Under the pieces are notes generated by a model, which did no database searches, was not told the DNA's origin, and saw nothing but the letters and a program-made list of their open reading frames with translations. Positions 2,650-22,405 of a stretch of 64,000 nucleotides of DNA are shown piece after piece. A program made the position numbers and the translations under genes. Position 1 is the stretch's first letter. Each line of letters starts with the position of its first letter. Origin of the DNA: Candidatus Woesebacteria bacterium RIFCSPHIGHO2_01_FULL_39_23. Its GTDB lineage: Bacteria; Patescibacteriota; Microgenomatia; UBA8517. The DNA lies in the NCBI GenBank assembly GCA_001792305.1, contig MGGH01000023.1, positions 34,347 through 98,346 of the forward strand, written 5' to 3'.

Positions 2650-3307
2650 GTATCCTTCTAAATTAATTTTAGTTCCTACACTTTTGATTTTTGTAATCTC
2701 TATACTATTTTTGGCTCTTGCCGGGTTTGATTATGGTAATCTATCGAATTTTGTAACTTCTTACGGAGTTTGGGGGGCAATTGTTTATATTTTGATGGGT
2801 GCCTTAAGCATTGTTGTCGCGCCGACTTCGGTAATTCCGCTTTGGCCTGCAGTTCTTGGTGCATACGGTTTTTGGGGAGCTGTAAGCCTGACTTGGATAA
2901 GCGGGATGATAGGCGCGGCCGCAAATTATTATATTGCAAAGGTTTTTGGTAGACCGGTTGTAAAAAAACTTGTCGGAGAAAAGGCTCTGATAGAAGTCGA
3001 TAGAATTGCCAAAATTGTCGGCTGGAAAGGATTGGTTGTTGTCCGCACAATCGGCAATGCGTCATTTGACTATGCCTCGTATGCTTTTGGTCTAGCAAGG
3101 TTTAATTTCAAAAACTATTTAATTGTTACAGCAGTCACCACGCTATTTTGGGATATGGCTGTTTTTTATTTTTTAAAGAAAGCTATATCTCTGACACTTA
3201 TCCCGTCAATTGCGGTTATGGTAGGAATGTATTTTCTGGCAGTGTTTGTTGGGATAAAAGTCTGGAGGCGTTATATGAATGTTGAGAAAAAGAGCAGAAA
3301 AGAGTAA
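2636..3307 (+). CDS. DedA/TVP38/TMEM64 family membrane protein
   Basis: 223 aa, multi-TM. The glycine-rich segment VAPTSVIPLWPAVLGAYGFWGAVSLTWISGMIGAAANYYIAKVFGRP is typical of the DedA/SNARE-associated family. Confidence 0.55.
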   Translation: MKSNKYPSKLILVPTLLIFVISILFLALAGFDYGNLSNFVTSYGVWGAIVYILMGALSIVVAPTSVIPLWPAVLGAYGFWGAVSLTWISGMIGAAANYYIAKVFGRPVVKKLVGEKALIEVDRIAKIVGWKGLVVVRTIGNASFDYASYAFGLARFNFKNYLIVTAVTTLFWDMAVFYFLKKAISLTLIPSIAVMVGMYFLAVFVGIKVWRRYMNVEKKSRKE

Positions 3308-3376
3308 AAGTTAATCTATATTTATGAAATATAGAGTTTTGGGTAAAACCGGGTTCAAAGTTTCAGAAGTTGGGAT

Positions 3377-4774
3377 GTGGACGCAGTAATTTTTACAATG
3401 ACAAAATTAGTATCTACAAACCCTGCTAAGAATTATGAAGTGATTGGTGCTGTTGATATTTCCACAAAAAGGGAGATAGAAGTAAAAGTGGCCTCCGCAC
3501 AAAAAGCCAAGTTAAAGTGGAAAGAGCTTGGAATTGTAAAAAGGACACAATTTTTAAGACCGGTTTTCAAAGAATTTATGAGGAGACAGAAAGAACTCGC
3601 ACTTCTTATTACCAGAGAAATGGGGAAGCCTATAAGAGAAAGTTTAGATGATATTGATTGGGATAGAGATTATTTCCAGTGGTTTTTGGACAATGGCGAG
3701 AAATATTTATCAGATGAGATAACTCATGAAGACGAGAAATCAGTTCACAAAACAGTATACGAACCTTTAGGTGTTGCGGCAGTAATTGTTCCTTGGAATT
3801 TTCCTTTTGACATGTTTCTTTGGGGAGTAATTCCAAACTTAATTGCCGGTAATACGGTTGTCTTTAAACACTCTGAAGAATGTCCACTAACAGGGAAATT
3901 GATTGAAGAAGTGATGAACAAAAGCGAGTTACCAAGAGGAGTTTTTTCCGAAGTTTATGGCGACGGAAAGGTGGGTGAGATTTTGGTAAACCAAGACATG
4001 GACCTGATCTGGTTTACGGGGAGTACTAAAGTAGGTAGACACATTTACGAGGTTGCCGGCAAGAAATTTATTAAGGCGATTTTGGAGATGGGCGGTTCAA
4101 ATCCGGCAATAGTTTTTGATGATGTAGACATTGATGGAATAATCGACAAAATTTACTCAAAAAGATTTTTGAACTGCGGCCAAACGTGCGACGCATTAAA
4201 AAGATTGATCGTGCACAAGTCGATTTTTGGTAAGGTAGTGGAGAAGTTGAAAAGGCAAGTTGAGTCAAAGGTGGTTGGCGATCCGGAAGATAGAAATACT
4301 GATATGGGAAGCTTGGTAGCCAAAAGGCAGTTGGAATTACTTGAGTCTCAGGTCAAAGACGCGATCCAAAAAGGAGCAAAAATTGTTACTGGTGGAGGAA
4401 GGCCAAAGAATTTAAAGGGTGCTTACTATCTACCCACTATTCTAACTAAAGTTAAAAGAGACATGAGAGTCTGGAAGGAGGAAACTTTTGGTCCGGTATT
4501 GGTTGTAGTTCCTTTTAAAACAGAGAAAGAAGCTATTAGTTTAGCTAACGACACACTTTATGGCTTGGGTGCACAGATTTATTCAAATAATAAAGCACGA
4601 GCAAGAAGAGTTGCTTCAAAAATTGACGCTGGGACAATCGATATCAATAGTGCGAACCACTGGTTGGCTTGTAATCCATTCGGCGGTTTCAAATATTCGG
4701 GAATGGGTCGTGAGCATGGTGAATATGGTTTTCGTGAACTTACTCAAGTAAAAGTTATCGCGGAGGAAAAATGA
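3377..4774 (+). CDS. NAD(P)-dependent aldehyde dehydrogenase family protein. The track start is GTG; the first ATG is at 3398.
   Basis: ALDH hallmarks are present: VPWNFPF, EMGGSNPAIVFDD, and GQTCDALKRL carrying the catalytic Cys. Confidence 0.85.
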   Translation: MDAVIFTMTKLVSTNPAKNYEVIGAVDISTKREIEVKVASAQKAKLKWKELGIVKRTQFLRPVFKEFMRRQKELALLITREMGKPIRESLDDIDWDRDYFQWFLDNGEKYLSDEITHEDEKSVHKTVYEPLGVAAVIVPWNFPFDMFLWGVIPNLIAGNTVVFKHSEECPLTGKLIEEVMNKSELPRGVFSEVYGDGKVGEILVNQDMDLIWFTGSTKVGRHIYEVAGKKFIKAILEMGGSNPAIVFDDVDIDGIIDKIYSKRFLNCGQTCDALKRLIVHKSIFGKVVEKLKRQVESKVVGDPEDRNTDMGSLVAKRQLELLESQVKDAIQKGAKIVTGGGRPKNLKGAYYLPTILTKVKRDMRVWKEETFGPVLVVVPFKTEKEAISLANDTLYGLGAQIYSNNKARARRVASKIDAGTIDINSANHWLACNPFGGFKYSGMGREHGEYGFRELTQVKVIAEEK

Positions 4775-5361
4775 ATAAGGTAAAGGTCCTGGTTGAAGGG
4801 TATGCGAAGATAAATTCTGATGGGACTTGGGATGCGACTTCGAGCACTACGTTTATTGACACTGGAAAGCTCAAAATTGTCGTTGACCCAGGATGTAGTC
4901 GTGAGCTACTTTTGAAAGCTTTGAAAAATGAAAATTTGAAAACAAGCGATATTGACTGCGTGTTTGTAACGCATTATCACCCTGACCACTGTGCTTTGAT
5001 GGGCATATTTGAAAACGCAACAATTTACGATTCTGTCCAATGGCAAAATGGGCCTCTGGGTGGGGATATTGGTGGGCTTCTGCCCGAAACCGATATTGAA
5101 GTCGTTAAGACACCAGGGCATTCGCCTGAACATGCATCACTTGTTGTCAATACCAATGAGGGAAAATATGTTGTAGCTGCGGATGTTTTCTGGTGGAAGG
5201 CGGGTGAAGAGCAGAAGGTAGATATAGAAAAGCCGGATGATTTTGCATCTGATATATCTGCGCTAAAAGAAAATCGCAGGAAAGTTTTGGAAATAGCTGA
5301 CTTTATAATTCCTGGGCACGGAAAGATGTTTAAAGTAGAAAATGAAGGGTTGGGTGAGTAA
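4771..5361 (+). CDS. MBL-fold metallo-hydrolase
   Basis: HxHxDH motif (VTHYHPDHCA). Its start overlaps the ALDH stop (ATGA). Confidence 0.75.
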   Translation: MNKVKVLVEGYAKINSDGTWDATSSTTFIDTGKLKIVVDPGCSRELLLKALKNENLKTSDIDCVFVTHYHPDHCALMGIFENATIYDSVQWQNGPLGGDIGGLLPETDIEVVKTPGHSPEHASLVVNTNEGKYVVAADVFWWKAGEEQKVDIEKPDDFASDISALKENRRKVLEIADFIIPGHGKMFKVENEGLGE

Positions 5362-5401
5362 AGATCTGAATCTAAGAACCCAAAAGGCAACTGTTGGCAG
5401 T

Positions 5402-5899
5402 TTAGGGGCGGGAAGCGATTTTAAGCGCATACTTCGCATAAAACTTCACGTGTTTTTTGAGATTGTACTTTGGATCATCTAAGTCTCTTTCAGTGAACCA
5501 TTTGTGGTTTGTAACAAACTTATCCTTGGAACCTCTAGGGTCAACATCTGTTGTCAAAAAAAATCGATAAGCGACATGCGTATGTTCTTCAGAAACCTGA
5601 TGAATGTCTGTGAAGGTTGGTGTAACTACAGATCTGCTTTTCATGCCTCCCATATCAGAAAAAATATTCTCTTTTGGCAAGCTATTTCTTGGATCTAACA
5701 GTTCTAATTCGCTTTTTTTGATTCCTGTTTCCTCTTCCATTTCTCTGTAAATTGTGGTTTCGGGGTCTTCGTCTTTCTCAATGTGCCCACCAGGCCCAAA
5801 CCACGAATTGTATTTCTTATTAAAAATCAGAAGAACCTTATCATTTTTAATAATGAAACAGTTAATTGTATATTCAAGAACTTTGTTTGTATGAGCCAT
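5402..5899 (-). CDS. NUDIX hydrolase
   Basis: Nudix box GPGGHIEKDEDPETTIYREMEEETGI. Confidence 0.8.
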   Translation of the reverse strand: MAHTNKVLEYTINCFIIKNDKVLLIFNKKYNSWFGPGGHIEKDEDPETTIYREMEEETGIKKSELELLDPRNSLPKENIFSDMGGMKSRSVVTPTFTDIHQVSEEHTHVAYRFFLTTDVDPRGSKDKFVTNHKWFTERDLDDPKYNLKKHVKFYAKYALKIASRP

Positions 5900-17026: not shown

Positions 17027-17995
17027 TTATAAAGAAGTCTTAGTAAGACTAAACTTAGCTTTAGTTCTTAAAACTAGCCAACGGATTTTTTCAGCAATTC
17101 TATAAAGATGATAAAGGGGGTGTGCTACTAAATCCCAACTTCCTAAAAACTCAATAACCTGTGGGTTATATCCCTCTTTAAATTTTGTAAATCCCTTTCC
17201 AGGCTCCCTTCCCCAAAGGTCAAAAATCTTATAACCCCGGCGCTTGCCAAATCTAATTGCCTCCCACATCATAAGGTTATTTGTCATGACATTTTTGTAT
17301 TTGTCGGAACTGGCACCGTATGGGTAGTAAAGAATTTTGTCGTAGGTAAACAAAATCCAGGTTGTGATAATTTCACTTTTATATTTAGCAACCAGAAGAT
17401 GAGCTAGGGGTGATCGGTGTTCGGTGATCGGTGTTCGGTGAAGGTGCTTCCACATAAGGCGGTGATATTCTGGTGTGTGAGCATAAAAACCTTGTCTTTT
17501 AGCTGTCTCAAAAGTCAGTTCCAAATATTTTTCAAATGCTTTATTTGAGTTATCCTCAATCACTTTTACTCCGTGTTTTTGGGCAAGACGGATGTTGTAG
17601 CGGGTTTTACCGGAAAAACTTTTCAGGAGTTCGTCTTCTGGTTTTGTTAAGTCGATTCGGAAAGTTGTAGGAGTAAATAAAGTTTTACCAGGGACAGCGT
17701 TGTTTTTTTTGAATAAATGAATTATTGAATTATTGACCTCACTTTTTATAATATTTGGTTCCAATTTTATAAATATTAGATTTTTTTCTTTAGCAATCTT
17801 TTTTAGAAAAACAAGCATTTCTTGTGTTGGTTTTGGCCCTTTGATAAACATGCCAATTTTCCATGGCGTAAAAGGGATTTTATGAAGAGTAATTACGCCA
17901 TATTTGGTTTCCAAAACCTCATTTCCCCATTCTTGTCGAAACTGCGCCCACTCGTGAGATTGTAAGGGGTGTTTTGGCTCTCTTGTTTTTACCAT
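17027..17995 (-). CDS. FemAB-family peptidyltransferase-like protein
   Basis: Homologous to 15507..16328. The N-terminus is MVKTREPKHPLQSHEWAQFRQEWG. Confidence 0.55.
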   Translation of the reverse strand: MVKTREPKHPLQSHEWAQFRQEWGNEVLETKYGVITLHKIPFTPWKIGMFIKGPKPTQEMLVFLKKIAKEKNLIFIKLEPNIIKSEVNNSIIHLFKKNNAVPGKTLFTPTTFRIDLTKPEDELLKSFSGKTRYNIRLAQKHGVKVIEDNSNKAFEKYLELTFETAKRQGFYAHTPEYHRLMWKHLHRTPITEHRSPLAHLLVAKYKSEIITTWILFTYDKILYYPYGASSDKYKNVMTNNLMMWEAIRFGKRRGYKIFDLWGREPGKGFTKFKEGYNPQVIEFLGSWDLVAHPLYHLYRIAEKIRWLVLRTKAKFSLTKTSL

Positions 17996-18409
17996 TTAAA
18001 CAACCTCGATATATTTTGGATAATTAAAAGTTACTTTAAAGTGGTCGAAGAATCCGTTATTTCCTAAAACGTCGAAGGAGTTTTGTGGTATTTCTTTTGA
18101 AAAAATAACGTTGGTTTCATACTCCTTTCCCGCAACTCCAAATAAAATTTTAAGTTGGTAACCTTTTATTTCCTTTCCTCCAATACCTCTTATTTTCCTT
18201 TTTTTACCTGTTGAGAGCTTAATTCCCAGATATGAAGTTACCAGTTCTTCAAATAGGCAATAGTCTGCTCCTGAATCTACTATTGCTTGATATCCCACAA
18301 TTCTCTTTTTGTTAAGTAGAATTACAGGAATCACTGGCCTGTAGATTATTTTTTTTCTGGGTGTGGCAGGTGAGGGAGTAACTTCAAATTCTTGATATTG
18401 ATATTTCAT
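17996..18409 (-). CDS. Retropepsin-like (clan AA) aspartic protease, single-domain
   Basis: Catalytic triad motif IVDSGADY plus flap motif RGIGGKEIKGY. 137 aa. Its stop abuts the FemAB start, and its start overlaps the upstream small ORF. Confidence 0.75.
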   Translation of the reverse strand: MKYQYQEFEVTPSPATPRKKIIYRPVIPVILLNKKRIVGYQAIVDSGADYCLFEELVTSYLGIKLSTGKKRKIRGIGGKEIKGYQLKILFGVAGKEYETNVIFSKEIPQNSFDVLGNNGFFDHFKVTFNYPKYIEVV

Positions 18410-18633
18410 TATGCATGAAGATTGTACCCAACATATGGCAATGATTCTTTGGGTATCTTCATTAAATAGGGTATTTTTGTGCCGGATTTTGTGGCTTTTT
18501 CTGCTGCCTCTTTTAGCGTTTTCCCCACACCAGCGACAGTAACAAGATCTTCTTTAAATGCGACCCATTTTCCGGGGTATTTCCTCTGAACCTCAACTCT
18601 ACTGATCGGTTTCATATTTTTATTATACACCAA
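18409..18633 (-). CDS. Small protein partner of the retropepsin. The likely true start is the ATG at 18615, giving 68 aa (the track starts at a TTG). It resembles the ~70-aa DUF5678-like family recalled from memory; unverified.
   Basis: MKPISRVEVQRKYPGKWVAFKEDLVTVAGVGKTLKEAAEKATKSGTKIPYLMKIP, i.e. the pattern GKWVA..D..V.AG.TL.EA.EKA.K.G. It overlaps the protease gene by 1 nt. Confidence 0.55.
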   Translation of the reverse strand: MVYNKNMKPISRVEVQRKYPGKWVAFKEDLVTVAGVGKTLKEAAEKATKSGTKIPYLMKIPKESLPYVGYNLHA

Positions 18634-18721
18634 CTAAAACTCCACACTTTCCCCACCCCCTTCGAAACTCCGCCCACTCGTGAGATTGAAGTGGATGAGT
18701 TGATGATTCGGTTGATTCCAT
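18632..18721 (-). pseudogene. Duplicated 5' fragment of a FemAB-family gene: start codon plus 31 codons, then a stop
   Basis: Reverse strand from the ATG at 18721-18719 encodes MESTESSTHPLQSHEWAEFRRGWGKCGVLVGV*. The intact gene at 17995 encodes MVKTREPKHPLQSHEWAQFRQEWGNEVL. DNA identity is 26/27 between 18662-18688 and 17936-17962. Confidence 0.65.
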
Positions 18722-18798: not shown

Positions 18799-19497
18799 AT
18801 GTCAGGTGAACCGACAGGCGAGGTAAGACCTGAAAATAGCGATGCTTCGATTAAAGTACGGGTAGTTTCTCAAAATGAACTATTTAGAATGAGCAATAGA
18901 GCACTGGATCTGGTTGAAGTAGATATCGAGAAAAACGTATATTGGCTAGAAACAGATGGGAAAACGCCAATTTTGAATAAGGGAGCTGGGCCCTGCTTAA
19001 TAATGTTTGTCAAAAATATTGGTGATGGCACTATAATTTCAGGACACTTTTCGGGTAGAATTGCTGACCATCAACTTAGCCAAGAAATATTAAAAACGCA
19101 TCTTAAAAAAGTACAAAAAGAGATTCCTAACGAGGGAGACGAAATATTAATTCATAGCCAGCAAGAACTTGATAATCTTGCGATTTCAGATAAAGAAATG
19201 TACAGGTCTTATTTGGCTTTGCTTGATAGAATTAAAGAGTTTTGTTCTGAGGCAGGAGAAGCCAGGATTGAAATATATCTTTTTGGTCAAAATTATTGGA
19301 GGTTGGTTTCGGAACCGGACGAAATTGGAGGATTAACGGAAAATATAATTCAAAGGCAAAATGTGGTGACTGATTTGGAGAGGTTAGGTGTTAAACCCCC
19401 AAGAATATTTGATTACAGGGATCTGAAGAGATTGGAGGGAACAGACGACACATTGTTTCTGCCCGAAGAAGATGTAATTTTACACGCTACTGGATAA
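18799..19497 (+). CDS. Hypothetical protein
   Basis: 232 aa with no recognisable motifs. Confidence 0.4.
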   Translation: MSGEPTGEVRPENSDASIKVRVVSQNELFRMSNRALDLVEVDIEKNVYWLETDGKTPILNKGAGPCLIMFVKNIGDGTIISGHFSGRIADHQLSQEILKTHLKKVQKEIPNEGDEILIHSQQELDNLAISDKEMYRSYLALLDRIKEFCSEAGEARIEIYLFGQNYWRLVSEPDEIGGLTENIIQRQNVVTDLERLGVKPPRIFDYRDLKRLEGTDDTLFLPEEDVILHATG

Positions 19498-19505
19498 GAC
19501 TATTT

Positions 19506-21351
19506 TTATTCAAAATTGTACTCTGTTATTCTTTTTTTAATGTAGCCGTTATCAGTTTCGATTAACTCCTCCGGAATATCAGTCAAAAACCGGCTGGGGG
19601 GATTTGAGGACGTTTGGCCGAAATAAAGACGGCGGGAGGCGTAAGTTAGATAAAGAATTTCTTTTGCGCGAGTGATACCTACATATGCGAGCCGCCTTTC
19701 TTCTTCCATCCCGTCTTGTTCCCATAAAGATTGTGCATGTGGGAAAAGTCCCTCTTCCATACCGATAATAAATACAACTTTAAATTCCAGTCCTTTTGAA
19801 GCATGTAATGTCATTAGGGTAACAGCATCTTTATTTTTTTCGCCATTTAATGGATCATCTGGCAGATATTCTTGTTGAACAAGTGCGACGTTTTCCAAAA
19901 AGTCGTGGATTTTGGGAAACTCGCTAGCAACGGACCTGAGCTCTTTGATGTTTTCAAGGCGCGCATAGTCTTCGGTTGATTCAGGATTAAATTTTTCTAA
20001 ATATCTTGTGATACTCACCACTTCGTCCATCAGCTCAAGGGTGGTTTTGGCGTTTAAAGGTTTAATTTTTACAGAGTATTTTTTAAACTCATCAAATCTT
20101 CTTTTACCGATTTTTTCTACCCGCTTGGTTGAAACATGATCTTTGGGGTTAACAAGCAGTCGTAAATAGGAAAGTACGTCCTTTATTTCGGCCCGCTCGT
20201 AAAATTTCACACCACCAACCAGTACGTAAGGAATTCCTGCGTGCAAAAAAGCTTCTTCCAAAACTCGTGATTGGGCATTAGTCCTGTATAAAATTGCTAT
20301 GTCTTTATAGCTTAAATTATTTTTTAAAATTTCATTGATTATATATGTCGCTTCTTCCGACCCGCTTCTGGCAGAATAGATTTTTATTTTTGGTCCGCCC
20401 TTTTTCTTTGTCCAAAGTTTCAAGACCGGGTGAGTTGTATTTTTTGAAATAACACTGTTTGCCGCAAGCAGAATGACTTCTGAAGACCTGTAATTTTCCT
20501 CAAGATTGACAATTTTGATACCTGGAAAGTCATTAATTAAATTTGCAATGTTTCGGAAATCTGCGCCTCTCCATGAATATATTGATTGGCTTGCATCGCC
20601 TACGGCAGTTATATTCTTGTTTTTTGATACAAGCAATTTGGTGAGCAAGTATTGTATTTTGTTTGTATCCTGCCATTCATCCACTAAAACATAAGTGAGC
20701 CTATTTTCCCATTTATTTAAAGTAGGCGGATCATTTTTTAGAAGATCGACTGTGTGCAGTAGAAGGTCATTAAAATCCAGTGCGTCGGCTTTTTTGAGAG
20801 CTTTTTCGTATTCAAGATAAATTTTGAAAGTTTTTTCCTGCATTGGTGTTTTTGCGATCTCCGCATACATAAGGGGGGTCAACATTTGGTTCTTCGCCGA
20901 ATCTATGGAGGAAAGAACCGATCCGGGACTCACGGATTTATCCGAAATATTTAAGACTTTTATAATGTCTTTTATTAAGTCCTTTTGATCTTGTGTGTCA
21001 TATATGATGAAGTTTCTGTTTATTCCTATTTTTTCCCCGTCTATGCGAAGCAGCCGTGCGCAAAAAGAGTGGAAAGTTCCCGTAAAAAATGGAAAGGTGC
21101 CGGTAATTTTTTCTACTCTTTCTTTCATTTCCCCCGCAGCTTTGTTAGTGAAAGTTAGAAGTAACAAGTTTTCTGGTCTTGCCCATTTTTGCGAAAGCAC
21201 ATATGCGGCTCTTTGTGTTAGTACCCTTGTCTTGCCGCTTCCAGCACCAGCGAGGACCAGTAGTGGTCCACTGCCGTAACTTACAGCTTCTTGTTGTGCA
21301 GTATTGAGTTGATCTAAAATAGATTTCGTTATACGTTTTTGATTGTAACAT
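19506..21351 (-). CDS. UvrD/PcrA/Rep-family SF1 helicase. The N-terminal ~50 codons, including Walker A, are reachable only through a 1-nt frameshift in a T5/A5 run at 21336-21340.
   Basis: The track ORF 19506..21200 starts at LLLLTFTNKAAGEM, which is helicase motif Ia. The same frame continues upstream through GPLLVLAGAGSGKTRVLTQRAAYV to a stop at 21360-21362 with no start codon. An ATG at 21351-21349 lies in the +1 frame (MLQSK...). Deleting one A joins them as MLQSKRITKSILDQLNTAQQEAVSYGSGPLLVLAGAGSGKT. Confidence 0.7.
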
Positions 21352-22405
21352 GGCGAGATCTAAATTTTTCTTTACAAAATTCAAGCGAAAATTTTTGAGC
21401 CACTTGTGGTTGGCAAGGATTATAATTATTTTGGGGGTGTTGTGTGTGGTGTTCCTGGGTGTTGTCGGGATTGCCTCGGTTGTTAAGAAGACCCCGCTTT
21501 CAGACTATATCGATATTGTGACTGCTTTTGTGTTTTCACCAAAAGACAAAGTGAAAAATTTTGACGGTAGGACAAATATTTTGATTCTTGGCAAGGGTGG
21601 TGAAGGCCACGAGGCACCAGATCTTACCGACACCTTAGTTTTAGCCTCAGTCGATTTTGATAAAAATGCAGTTTCGTTTCTATCTATTCCTAGAGACATT
21701 TGGATAGAGTCTTTGAGGATTAAGTTGAATAGTGCTTATTATTGGGGAAACGAAAGACAAGAAAATGGAGGACTGATTCTTGCTAAATCATCTGTCGAGG
21801 AAATCATTGGTTCACCAGTGCACTACGCCGTGGTTATTGACTTTGTTTTATTTAAGGATTTGATTGACGAGGTGGGTGGAATAGAAGTGGACGTGGAGGA
21901 TTCGTTTGTGGATCATCGATATCCCATTCCTGGGCGGGAAAATGATGAGTGTGACGATGATCCTAAGTTTTTGTGTAGATATGAAACAATCGAGTTTAGG
22001 AAAGGCTTGCAATTTATGGATGGTGATACTGCTCTAAAATTTGTCCGTTCAAGAAATGCCGAAGGGGACGAGGGGACGGATATTGCAAGATCCAAGAGGC
22101 AGCAGAAGGTGATTTTGTCTTTAAAAAACGAAATTCTAAGCTGGAACATTATTTTCTCATTCAATAAGTTGTCGAACATAAAAGAATTGGTGGGATCAAG
22201 GACGGAAACAGATATGGATACAATTGCGTCGGTAATTGTTGCAAGGAAGATTTTTGACGCGAGAAATAACTTTAGGACTTTAAGCATTCCCGAAGAATTC
22301 TTGGAGGTAGCGCCAAAGTCTCCCGACTTCGACAATCTTTACGTATTCATACCGAGTGCTGGTAATTGGATGGAACTTCAAAGGTGGATAAAAAGCAATA
22401 TCTGA
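21350..22405 (+). CDS. LytR-CpsA-Psr (LCP) family cell-envelope polymer transferase
   Basis: N-terminal TM helix, then DTLVLASVD...SIPRD, the LCP signature. Confidence 0.75.
   Translation: MARSKFFFTKFKRKFLSHLWLARIIIILGVLCVVFLGVVGIASVVKKTPLSDYIDIVTAFVFSPKDKVKNFDGRTNILILGKGGEGHEAPDLTDTLVLASVDFDKNAVSFLSIPRDIWIESLRIKLNSAYYWGNERQENGGLILAKSSVEEIIGSPVHYAVVIDFVLFKDLIDEVGGIEVDVEDSFVDHRYPIPGRENDECDDDPKFLCRYETIEFRKGLQFMDGDTALKFVRSRNAEGDEGTDIARSKRQQKVILSLKNEILSWNIIFSFNKLSNIKELVGSRTETDMDTIASVIVARKIFDARNNFRTLSIPEEFLEVAPKSPDFDNLYVFIPSAGNWMELQRWIKSNI

Follow-up and report, generated by a model that had tools for sequence, protein, structure and literature searches.

The 64,000-nt stretch of contig MGGH01000023.1 from Candidatus Woesebacteria bacterium RIFCSPHIGHO2_01_FULL_39_23 that we analyzed (herein the window) carries two overlapping genes, one for a small DUF5678 protein and one for a retropepsin-like aspartic protease. 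The two genes make up a self-contained, co-inherited cassette in which a DUF5678 protein of ∼54 to 72 amino acids (aa) is encoded ahead of a retropepsin-fold protein of ∼130 to 150 aa. The cassette is autonomous and mobile, being distributed patchily and in unrelated genomic places across many lineages. We tentatively read it as a toxin-antitoxin or abortive-infection-like module in which the DUF5678 protein would restrain a dimeric aspartic protease, a proposal to which we give somewhat less than even confidence.

Conservation of the pairing

Pairing was counted at protease-anchored loci, of which there are 39, representing about 30 distinct pairs. At 38 of these a DUF5678 open reading frame (ORF) lies directly upstream of the protease gene on the same strand, and the pairing is conserved far beyond chance. 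When one genome per GTDB species was scanned with the protease profile, 21 loci were recovered, and a DUF5678-like ORF, recognized by hidden Markov models (HMMs) built from our own alignments, lies directly upstream in the same orientation at all 21. Pfam DUF5678 independently matched 24 of the 25 upstream ORFs tested (that of the window included). Exact-sequence look-up of eight further proteases gave the same picture, with an upstream ORF of 54 to 71 aa that is DUF5678 by precomputed Pfam annotation or by HMM in every case (8/8). Protease relatives were also found on three IMG/VR viral contigs, two with the partner and one without (L038). Close homologs of the window DUF5678 protein number 11, and all belong to PF18929. 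The first-pass annotation, which had proposed a two-gene system from the sequence of the window, had let that proposal hinge on co-occurrence in other genomes and on homologs of the small ORF; both are present, the former in several phyla.

According to the record titles, the hosts comprise Woesebacteria, Blackburnbacteria, Curtissbacteria, Vogelbacteria, Peribacteria, and other Patescibacteria, together with Chloroflexota/Anaerolineales, Omnitrophota, Syntrophorhabdaceae, Planctomycetales, Acidimicrobiaceae, and a Micrarchaeon; a few metagenome-assembled genomes (MAGs) are titled “Gammaproteobacteria” or “Pseudomonadales,” labels that we do not trust. The stop-start junctions at the other loci are mostly −4 (ATGA/GTGA) or −1, with a range of −26 to +20. 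Pairwise identities of the DUF5678 proteins and of the proteases correlate (Spearman 0.56 over 190 non-independent locus pairs), as would be expected if the two genes move and descend as one unit. Homologs reach down to about 25 to 30% identity, and the many homologs, the conserved motifs, and the conserved arrangement of both genes rule out a reading of the pair as spurious ORFs.

Within about 2.5 kb to each side of the pair, unrelated loci have no third gene in common. At one locus each, the pair lies between rpsI and trmD, between rpsG and fusA, after rpsI and a methyltransferase gene and ahead of grpE, or between a GNAT gene and a HIT gene; at another it adjoins an MNT/HepT pair, and at L001 it lies upstream of a HicA-family toxin gene. 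Tandem arrangements also occur. At L042 (2581–3393), two tandem DUF5678 genes precede one protease gene and adjoin PrgI/TraC-like type IV secretion genes, and an Omnitrophota MAG (L015) has two tandem partner-protease pairs (3792–4420 and 4688–5406), the second with a longer partner ORF (called at 102 aa) that is matched by HMM. On the IMG/VR viral contigs, the neighboring ORFs have almost no Pfam matches. A 580-kb contig (L031) carries the pair and two small ORFs between two 172-aa genes (3113–3631 and 5335–5853) that have the same weak Pfam matches (CPT/AAA_33), an arrangement that echoes the duplication flanking the pair in the window; an MNT/HepT pair lies about 2.5 kb upstream of the pair on this contig.

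The protease and its DUF5678 partner

Coordinates herein are positions in the window, and motif residues are numbered along its 137-aa protease (Table 1). Both ORFs lie where the first-pass annotation had placed them, on the minus strand, which it had left unstated. The junction is the single-nucleotide overlap that it had described: the TAA of the DUF5678 gene (18409–18411) and the ATG of the protease gene (18407–18409) have one base in common, and the overlap is, as judged from the sequence, a translational coupling. In its longest form the DUF5678 ORF starts at TTG 18633 and encodes 74 aa; the shorter form listed in Table 1 is the one annotated and kept in homologs. NCBI names each of the two proteins “hypothetical protein” (A2961_03050 and A2961_03055; Candidatus Woesebacteria bacterium RIFCSPLOWO2_01_FULL_39_21).

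Table 1. Positions of the gene pair, its motifs, and the surrounding features in the window
Feature	Positions	Strand	Basis and remarks
DUF5678 partner gene	18409..18615	(-)	ORF, 68 aa from ATG 18615; Pfam PF18929
Retropepsin-like aspartic protease gene	17996..18409	(-)	ORF, 137 aa, single domain, one catalytic Asp
TAATG junction	18407..18411	(-)	DUF5678 stop overlaps protease start by 1 nt
Catalytic motif D45-S-G-A-D49 (within AIVDSGADY)	18263..18277	(-)	Reverse complement GAT TCA GGA GCA GAC
Flap tip G75-I-G-G78 (within RGIGGKE)	18176..18187	(-)	Sequence; G75 nearly invariant
L115-G-N-N-G-F-F121	18047..18067	(-)	G116 invariant or nearly so; L115 and F121 conserved
Intact FemAB-family gene (fem)	17027..17995	(-)	FemAB E=2.2e-26
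FemAB-family 5' end remnant (MESTESSTHPLQSHEWAEFRRGWGK...)	18623..18721	(-)	ORF; aligned to intact fem 5' end
55-nt direct repeat, right copy	17922..17976	.	Repeat search; inside intact fem 5' end
55-nt direct repeat, left copy	18648..18702	.	Repeat search; inside fem remnant
232-aa ORF	18799..19497	(+)	Divergent from pair
UvrD-like helicase ORF	19506..21200	(-)	Starts GTG, 564 aa

Assigning the window protease from its sequence alone is borderline because both of its Pfam scores fall under the gathering cut-off (Asp_protease_2, 19.5 vs. 24.3 bits; RVP, 18.3 vs. 20.7 bits); precomputed PF13650 or PF13975 matches are present in many of its homologs. The AlphaFold2 (AF2) model has a predicted local distance difference test score (pLDDT) of 94.3 and a predicted template modeling score (pTM) of 0.86, and a Foldseek search of the Protein Data Bank (PDB) with this model returned, at a probability of 1.00, the bacterial protease APRc (5c9f) and the proteases of human immunodeficiency virus types 1 and 2 (HIV-1 and HIV-2), simian immunodeficiency virus (SIV), and equine infectious anemia virus (EIAV), with template modeling (TM) scores of 0.72 to 0.77 to the viral enzymes, normalized by target length. 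On this model the window protease is a genuine retropepsin-fold protein with a flap hairpin, in which GIGG sits between strands E69-74 and E80-92. The two hallmarks that the first-pass annotation had picked out of the single-domain ORF, IVDSGAD and GIGG, were both located and find their place in a modeled retropepsin fold.

The catalytic motif reads as the Asp-Thr/Ser-Gly-Ala of Pfam clan Peptidase_AA. A third retropepsin motif, absent from the first-pass annotation, is LGNNGFF, which we equate with the retropepsin I-G-R-N/D motif (G86-R87-N88 in HIV-1 protease). In an alignment of 115 homologs, D45 and G47 are invariant, and S46, A48, D49, G75, G116, and F121 are at least 90% conserved. Relative to the 99-residue viral enzymes, the window protease has an extra ∼20 to 25 N-terminal residues, which form added strands in the model and begin with a conserved M-x-F-x-Y. 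With its intact D-S-G-A motif and predicted retropepsin fold, the protein is apparently an active enzyme. A single catalytic Asp per chain would, by analogy with retropepsins, make a homodimer necessary for activity, and we infer that the protease is active in this form, with a two-Asp site.

The prokaryotic family of stand-alone retropepsin-like proteins is large. Searching with a profile built from 13 close homologs of the window protease gave 3805 representatives at 50% identity with E≤1e-3, and 1059 with E≤1e-10; among the 150 matches listed, nearly all are single-domain proteins of roughly 100 to 155 aa. The window protease had no match at E≤1 to NCBIfam TIGR03698 or TIGR02281, and matches among 25 relatives were weak (TIGR03698, 8/25; TIGR02281, 3/25; best 4.6e-6). 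It resembles TIGR03698 (clan_AA_DTGF) and TIGR02281 (clan_AA_DTGA) as prokaryotic stand-alone clan AA proteins but differs in falling outside both models. The window protease had no match among plasmids, and a tblastn search of plasmids with the DUF5678 protein gave nothing meaningful. Among the proteins listed, we saw no DUF5678-protease fusion of the Rosetta-stone kind. Two long proteins were inspected, and in both the protease domain is joined to something else, a rare arrangement: P0183 (745 aa) has an N-terminal retropepsin domain followed by a large P-loop NTPase (GKAGSGKT), and in P0216 (262 aa) several zinc-ribbon-like CxxC repeats precede the protease domain.

The partner matches PF18929 over the full profile (1–49/49; E=1.7e-7, 31.4 bits vs. 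a gathering score of 23.2), in agreement with the DUF5678-like resemblance noted in the first-pass annotation. Its AF2 model, built from 11 sequences, has a pLDDT of 75 and shows a β-β-α-β core at residues 17 through 53; residues 54 through 68 are without secondary structure and of lower confidence, those from 65 to 68 falling below a pLDDT of 50. Despite its predicted disorder, this C-terminal tail is conserved, with the pattern P-I/L-L-x-V-P ... Y-V/I (in the window, ..VP.ESLPYVG..). Neither the model nor the sequence of the DUF5678 protein found a match in the PDB, PADLOC returned no match for it, and a guessed HicB/UPF0150-like identity is unsupported. The median isoelectric points of the two partners are 9.7 and 9.5, which makes the idea of pairing through opposite charge uninformative. 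A weak structural match to the window model (E 0.32) was obtained in BFVD for A0A2U7UD66, a “DUF5678 domain-containing protein” of Pandoravirus neocaledonia.

Related cassettes and candidate functions

PADLOC includes the PDC systems, a set of 145 untested phage defense candidates derived from guilt-by-embedding in BREX, DISARM, and type I restriction-modification (RM) loci (Payne et al., 10.1101/2024.01.29.577857). Two of them bear on the window pair: PDC-M52, which is cassette CAS_00170 with a listed count of 55, and PDC-M08, which is cassette CAS_00054 with a listed count of 381 (FAM_03167>>FAM_00414) (10.1101/2024.01.29.577857). A tblastn search with a Chloroflexi member of the protease family retrieved relatives on plasmids of Rippkaea orientalis PCC 8801 and Pseudanabaena galeata that match the protease family HMM at an E of about 1e-18. 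In these cyanobacterial relatives, the protease gene overlaps by 8 nt an upstream gene for a 72-aa protein that is not DUF5678, and the Rippkaea pair is PDC-M52 (B, 2.2e-47; A, 2.6e-8), which makes it a positive control for the two models. Partners are swapped within the wider protease family, which pairs with a different small upstream protein in cyanobacteria.

The PDC-M52B model is matched weakly by 21 of 25 window-family proteases and PDC-M08B by 17 of 25; none of the 25 DUF5678 partners matches PDC-M52A, or indeed any PDC A model. The window protease itself has no match to PDC-M52B at E≤0.1, and its only PADLOC match is to PDC-M08B, weak and partial (E=0.0039, 15.2 bits, residues 32 through 81). 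The window pair belongs to neither PDC-M52 nor PDC-M08, because the A and B models are not both matched. It is like PDC-M52 in consisting of two co-directional, overlapping genes, for an upstream protein of ∼70 aa and a single-domain retropepsin-like protease of ∼130 aa from the same broad family, and in that the window-family cassette also occurs in mobile contexts (insertion sequence [IS] elements, HicAB, and a plasmid in the case of PDC-M52). It is unlike PDC-M52 in that PDC-M52A, which we take from its sequence to be helical, is unrelated to DUF5678; moreover, PDC-M52 comes from RefSeq genomes, embedded in BREX, DISARM, and type I RM loci, whereas the DUF5678 form was encountered in our sampling mainly in uncultured Patescibacteria, Chloroflexota, and similar groups. 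With PDC-M08 the pair has in common the two-gene organization and the DSGAD region of PDC-M08B; it differs in that the B match is weak and partial and the A model is unmatched by DUF5678 partners.

The class of architecture is thus catalogued among candidates (PDC-M52 and PDC-M08), and the DUF5678 form is in neither PADLOC nor the literature searched. The literature searched gave no functional work on DUF5678, nor on a retropepsin-like or aspartyl protease as a toxin, antitoxin partner, or defense effector, and the first-pass statement that the system is not a characterized one holds with the caveat that its general architecture has not gone entirely unnoticed, since the sister cassette PDC-M52 is catalogued in PADLOC. 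To our knowledge, very few retropepsin-like proteases of bacteria have been assigned a function. APRc was the only bacterial one with literature that our searches returned (PMC4140852). The window protease resembles the retropepsins (HIV-1, HIV-2, SIV, EIAV, and APRc 5c9f) in its modeled fold, D-S/T-G-A-D motif, Gly-rich flap, single Asp per chain, and G-x-N/D motif before the C-terminal strands. Unlike the viral retropepsins, it has an N-terminal extension and lies outside any polyprotein; unlike the Rickettsia conorii APRc, which is reportedly a membrane-embedded protein, it is not membrane-anchored, and its family is encoded with a small partner (38/39 loci).

The organization of the cassette, with two coupled genes, an autonomous distribution, and a variable context, is that of type II toxin-antitoxin systems such as HicAB and MNT/HepT. 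As in those systems, a small upstream gene is coupled to a larger downstream gene; the unit is autonomous and patchy, occurs in unrelated contexts including conserved operons and plasmids, and swaps partners; and the downstream gene occasionally decays while the upstream gene is kept. An intact DUF5678 gene lies beside a frameshifted (L017) or a truncated (L023) protease gene at two loci, where assembly errors are possible, and, in these small numbers, no protease without an intact partner was seen except L038. Co-occurrence, coupling, mobility, partner swapping, the conserved active site, this pattern of decay, and the conserved tail are together the grounds on which we favor a toxin-antitoxin-like module, along with the PDC-M52 relative, which is a candidate embedded in defense systems. 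The effector would be the protease homodimer with its two-Asp active site. The DUF5678 protein would bind the protease stoichiometrically and keep it inactive, most likely through its conserved, disordered tail, which might occupy the substrate cleft or block dimerization. Were the partner lost, degraded, or displaced (through loss of the element, phage infection, or stress), the protease would cleave cellular or viral proteins. As regards inhibitor, antitoxin, or substrate as the role of the DUF5678 protein, the choice is one that we infer.

Several observations weigh against this reading. Type II systems differ from the cassette in that the candidate effector here is an aspartic protease, and we know of no aspartic-protease toxin among toxin-antitoxin systems. 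The PDB searches gave the DUF5678 protein no known antitoxin or DNA-binding fold, and no operator was seen. Between the window and L004, which are close Woesebacteria relatives, the DUF5678 proteins are 81% identical and the proteases 56%, and such higher conservation of the partner is unusual for an antitoxin. A metagenome scan anchored on DUF5678 (alignment A2) gave only five close loci. In this lineage, moreover, the pair is fused to the fem operon, and its position is syntenic and stable, which would fit a domesticated, housekeeping role. The possibility of assembly error at the decayed loci counts on the same side.

Tight coupling and co-inheritance would fit any obligate two-protein unit, and it is conceivable, although rather unlikely, that the protease acts with a dedicated substrate or adaptor in a housekeeping or stress-response unit with no role in conflict. 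The small DUF5678 protein could then have a regulatory or structural function and be matured or degraded by the protease, for example through trimming of its tail; or else it could serve as an activator, or as an adaptor through which substrates reach the protease. The stronger conservation of DUF5678 among close relatives and the failure of the PDB searches to give it a DNA-binding fold argue for such a role, as do the several insertions inside translation-related operons and the hydrophobic and aromatic residues of the conserved tail (PYVG, YIL, YIV); retropepsins favor hydrophobic or aromatic residues around scissile bonds. In many members, however, the tail ends 0 to 3 residues after the Y-I/V motif, and cleavage there would therefore free nothing substantial. 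The replacement of the partner by an unrelated small protein in relatives and the embedding of related cassettes in defense systems also speak against this role, and the patchy, mobile distribution, with unrelated contexts and with copies on plasmids, on viral contigs, and in neighborhoods like those of type IV secretion systems, disfavors a core cellular function. A substrate-protease maturation pair, if that is what the cassette is, would still be a new small regulatory circuit.

The pair could also have come from a virus or mobile element, as a relic or as cargo, with the protease maturing proteins of the element and the DUF5678 protein acting as an accessory. The classical retropepsins are enzymes of viruses or retroelements, Pandoravirus has a protein annotated as DUF5678, relatives lie on three IMG/VR viral contigs whose neighboring genes are almost without Pfam matches, and one locus adjoins PrgI/TraC-like genes. 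We nevertheless consider this origin improbable: where neighbors are Pfam-annotated, no capsid, portal, reverse transcriptase, or integrase gene lies beside most of the 39 loci; no neighboring gene is common to unrelated loci; ordinary chromosomal genes usually flank the pair; tblastn of the window protease against 50,697 GenBank phage records gave no match; and no meaningful PHROG match was found for the protease or for the DUF5678 protein. A lineage-specific role in the cell wall, in which the pair would work with the downstream FemAB-family peptidoglycan-bridge transferases of the same operon, draws on the direct passage from the protease stop to the fem ATG in the window and L004 and on the position of the pair upstream of two FemAB-family genes in L001. 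It seems to us very improbable, given that outside this Woesebacteria group there is no FemAB-family gene among the Pfam-annotated neighbors, nor any conserved neighbor, and that the pair and fem of L001 are separated by genes for an inositol-phosphatase-family protein and a HicA toxin.

The obligate small partner offers a concrete handle on the function of stand-alone prokaryotic retropepsin-like proteins, and the cassette bears on the biology of Patescibacteria and DPANN archaea, whose small genomes keep it, even inside ribosomal-protein operons. Should the protease prove to be a toxin or defense effector, no aspartic protease would have been an effector in toxin-antitoxin or anti-phage biology before it; a role would be assigned to DUF5678, and candidates PDC-M52 and PDC-M08 would gain support. 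We put forward more guardedly still, as something we would doubt sooner than believe, the broader proposal that the DUF5678-retropepsin pair is the founding and most widely distributed member of a new class of conflict modules, in which a homodimeric aspartic protease would serve as toxin or abortive-infection effector and small interchangeable partners (DUF5678 and PDC-M52A) as inhibitors or infection sensors through an undescribed fold. On that proposal, aspartic proteases would join the known chemistries of toxins and defense effectors, and small-genome Patescibacteria and DPANN archaea would carry a module family of their own.

The two cyanobacterial relatives lie on plasmid pP880101 of R. 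orientalis PCC 8801 (L039; 15945–16554) and on plasmid pPg_02 of P. galeata (L040). The Rippkaea PDC-M52 cassette has an IS701 transposase gene on one side and an IS4 transposase gene on the other, and HicAB and ParA lie nearby. Both organisms are cultured cyanobacteria and a tractable source for experiments on the PDC-M52 cassette.

The FemAB locus of the window

In the window the first ∼28 codons of fem are duplicated on either side of the pair (Table 1). The upstream copy is a dead-end remnant that ends 8 nt before the DUF5678 ATG, and a motif search for it found a second copy in the window only. The two copies of the 55-nt direct repeat, which flank the pair at a spacing of 726 nt, are 78% identical. 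At the other end, the protease stop passes directly into the fem ATG (TAA-ATG, 17993–17998). The related contig L004 has the same fusion of protease stop and fem ATG, without the remnant; between it and the window, the Fem proteins are 54% identical and the proteases, as given above, 56%. In L001, too, the pair lies between uvrD and fem, an interval that there holds extra genes. From uvrD to the pair, each genome has a different intervening gene, and this part is a variable spot among related Woesebacteria.

Because the first ∼28 codons of fem are duplicated around it, the pair appears to have arrived together with a new fem 5' end, and the fem remnant reads as the left edge of the inserted unit. 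The GC content of the insert shows no anomaly. This arrangement, which fits the earlier claim that the two genes were inserted as a unit, suggests that one-sided homologous recombination brought the pair into a FemAB-family gene at its 5' end. A related Woesebacterium would have donated a pair-fem segment that took the place of the resident fem start, by a single homologous crossover within fem together with a single illegitimate join past codon ∼28. Homology-facilitated illegitimate recombination of this kind would keep the first ∼28 codons, with the old promoter, upstream. The remnant probably supplies the promoter for the pair, which is now probably co-transcribed with fem from the old fem promoter.

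Searches of Pfam, NCBIfam, PADLOC, and PHROGs gave no match for the divergent 232-aa ORF between the pair and the UvrD-like gene, and L001 has a nonhomologous gene in its place; the ORF was ruled out as a component of the system. The UvrD-like ORF is without the usual N-terminal Walker A region and is shorter than its counterparts in L001 and L004 (564 vs. 611 to 624 aa). A GxGKT-like stretch apparently lies upstream of it in another frame (∼21145–21384), which points to an apparent frameshift or assembly error near 21200. Inside the intact fem ORF, a 14-nt unit is perfectly duplicated in tandem at 17409–17436 (GGTGATCGGTGTTC x2). At this duplication the window Fem reads ...RTPITEHRSP... and the L004 ortholog ...TRLVKQGEKP..., and the reading frame is kept on both sides.

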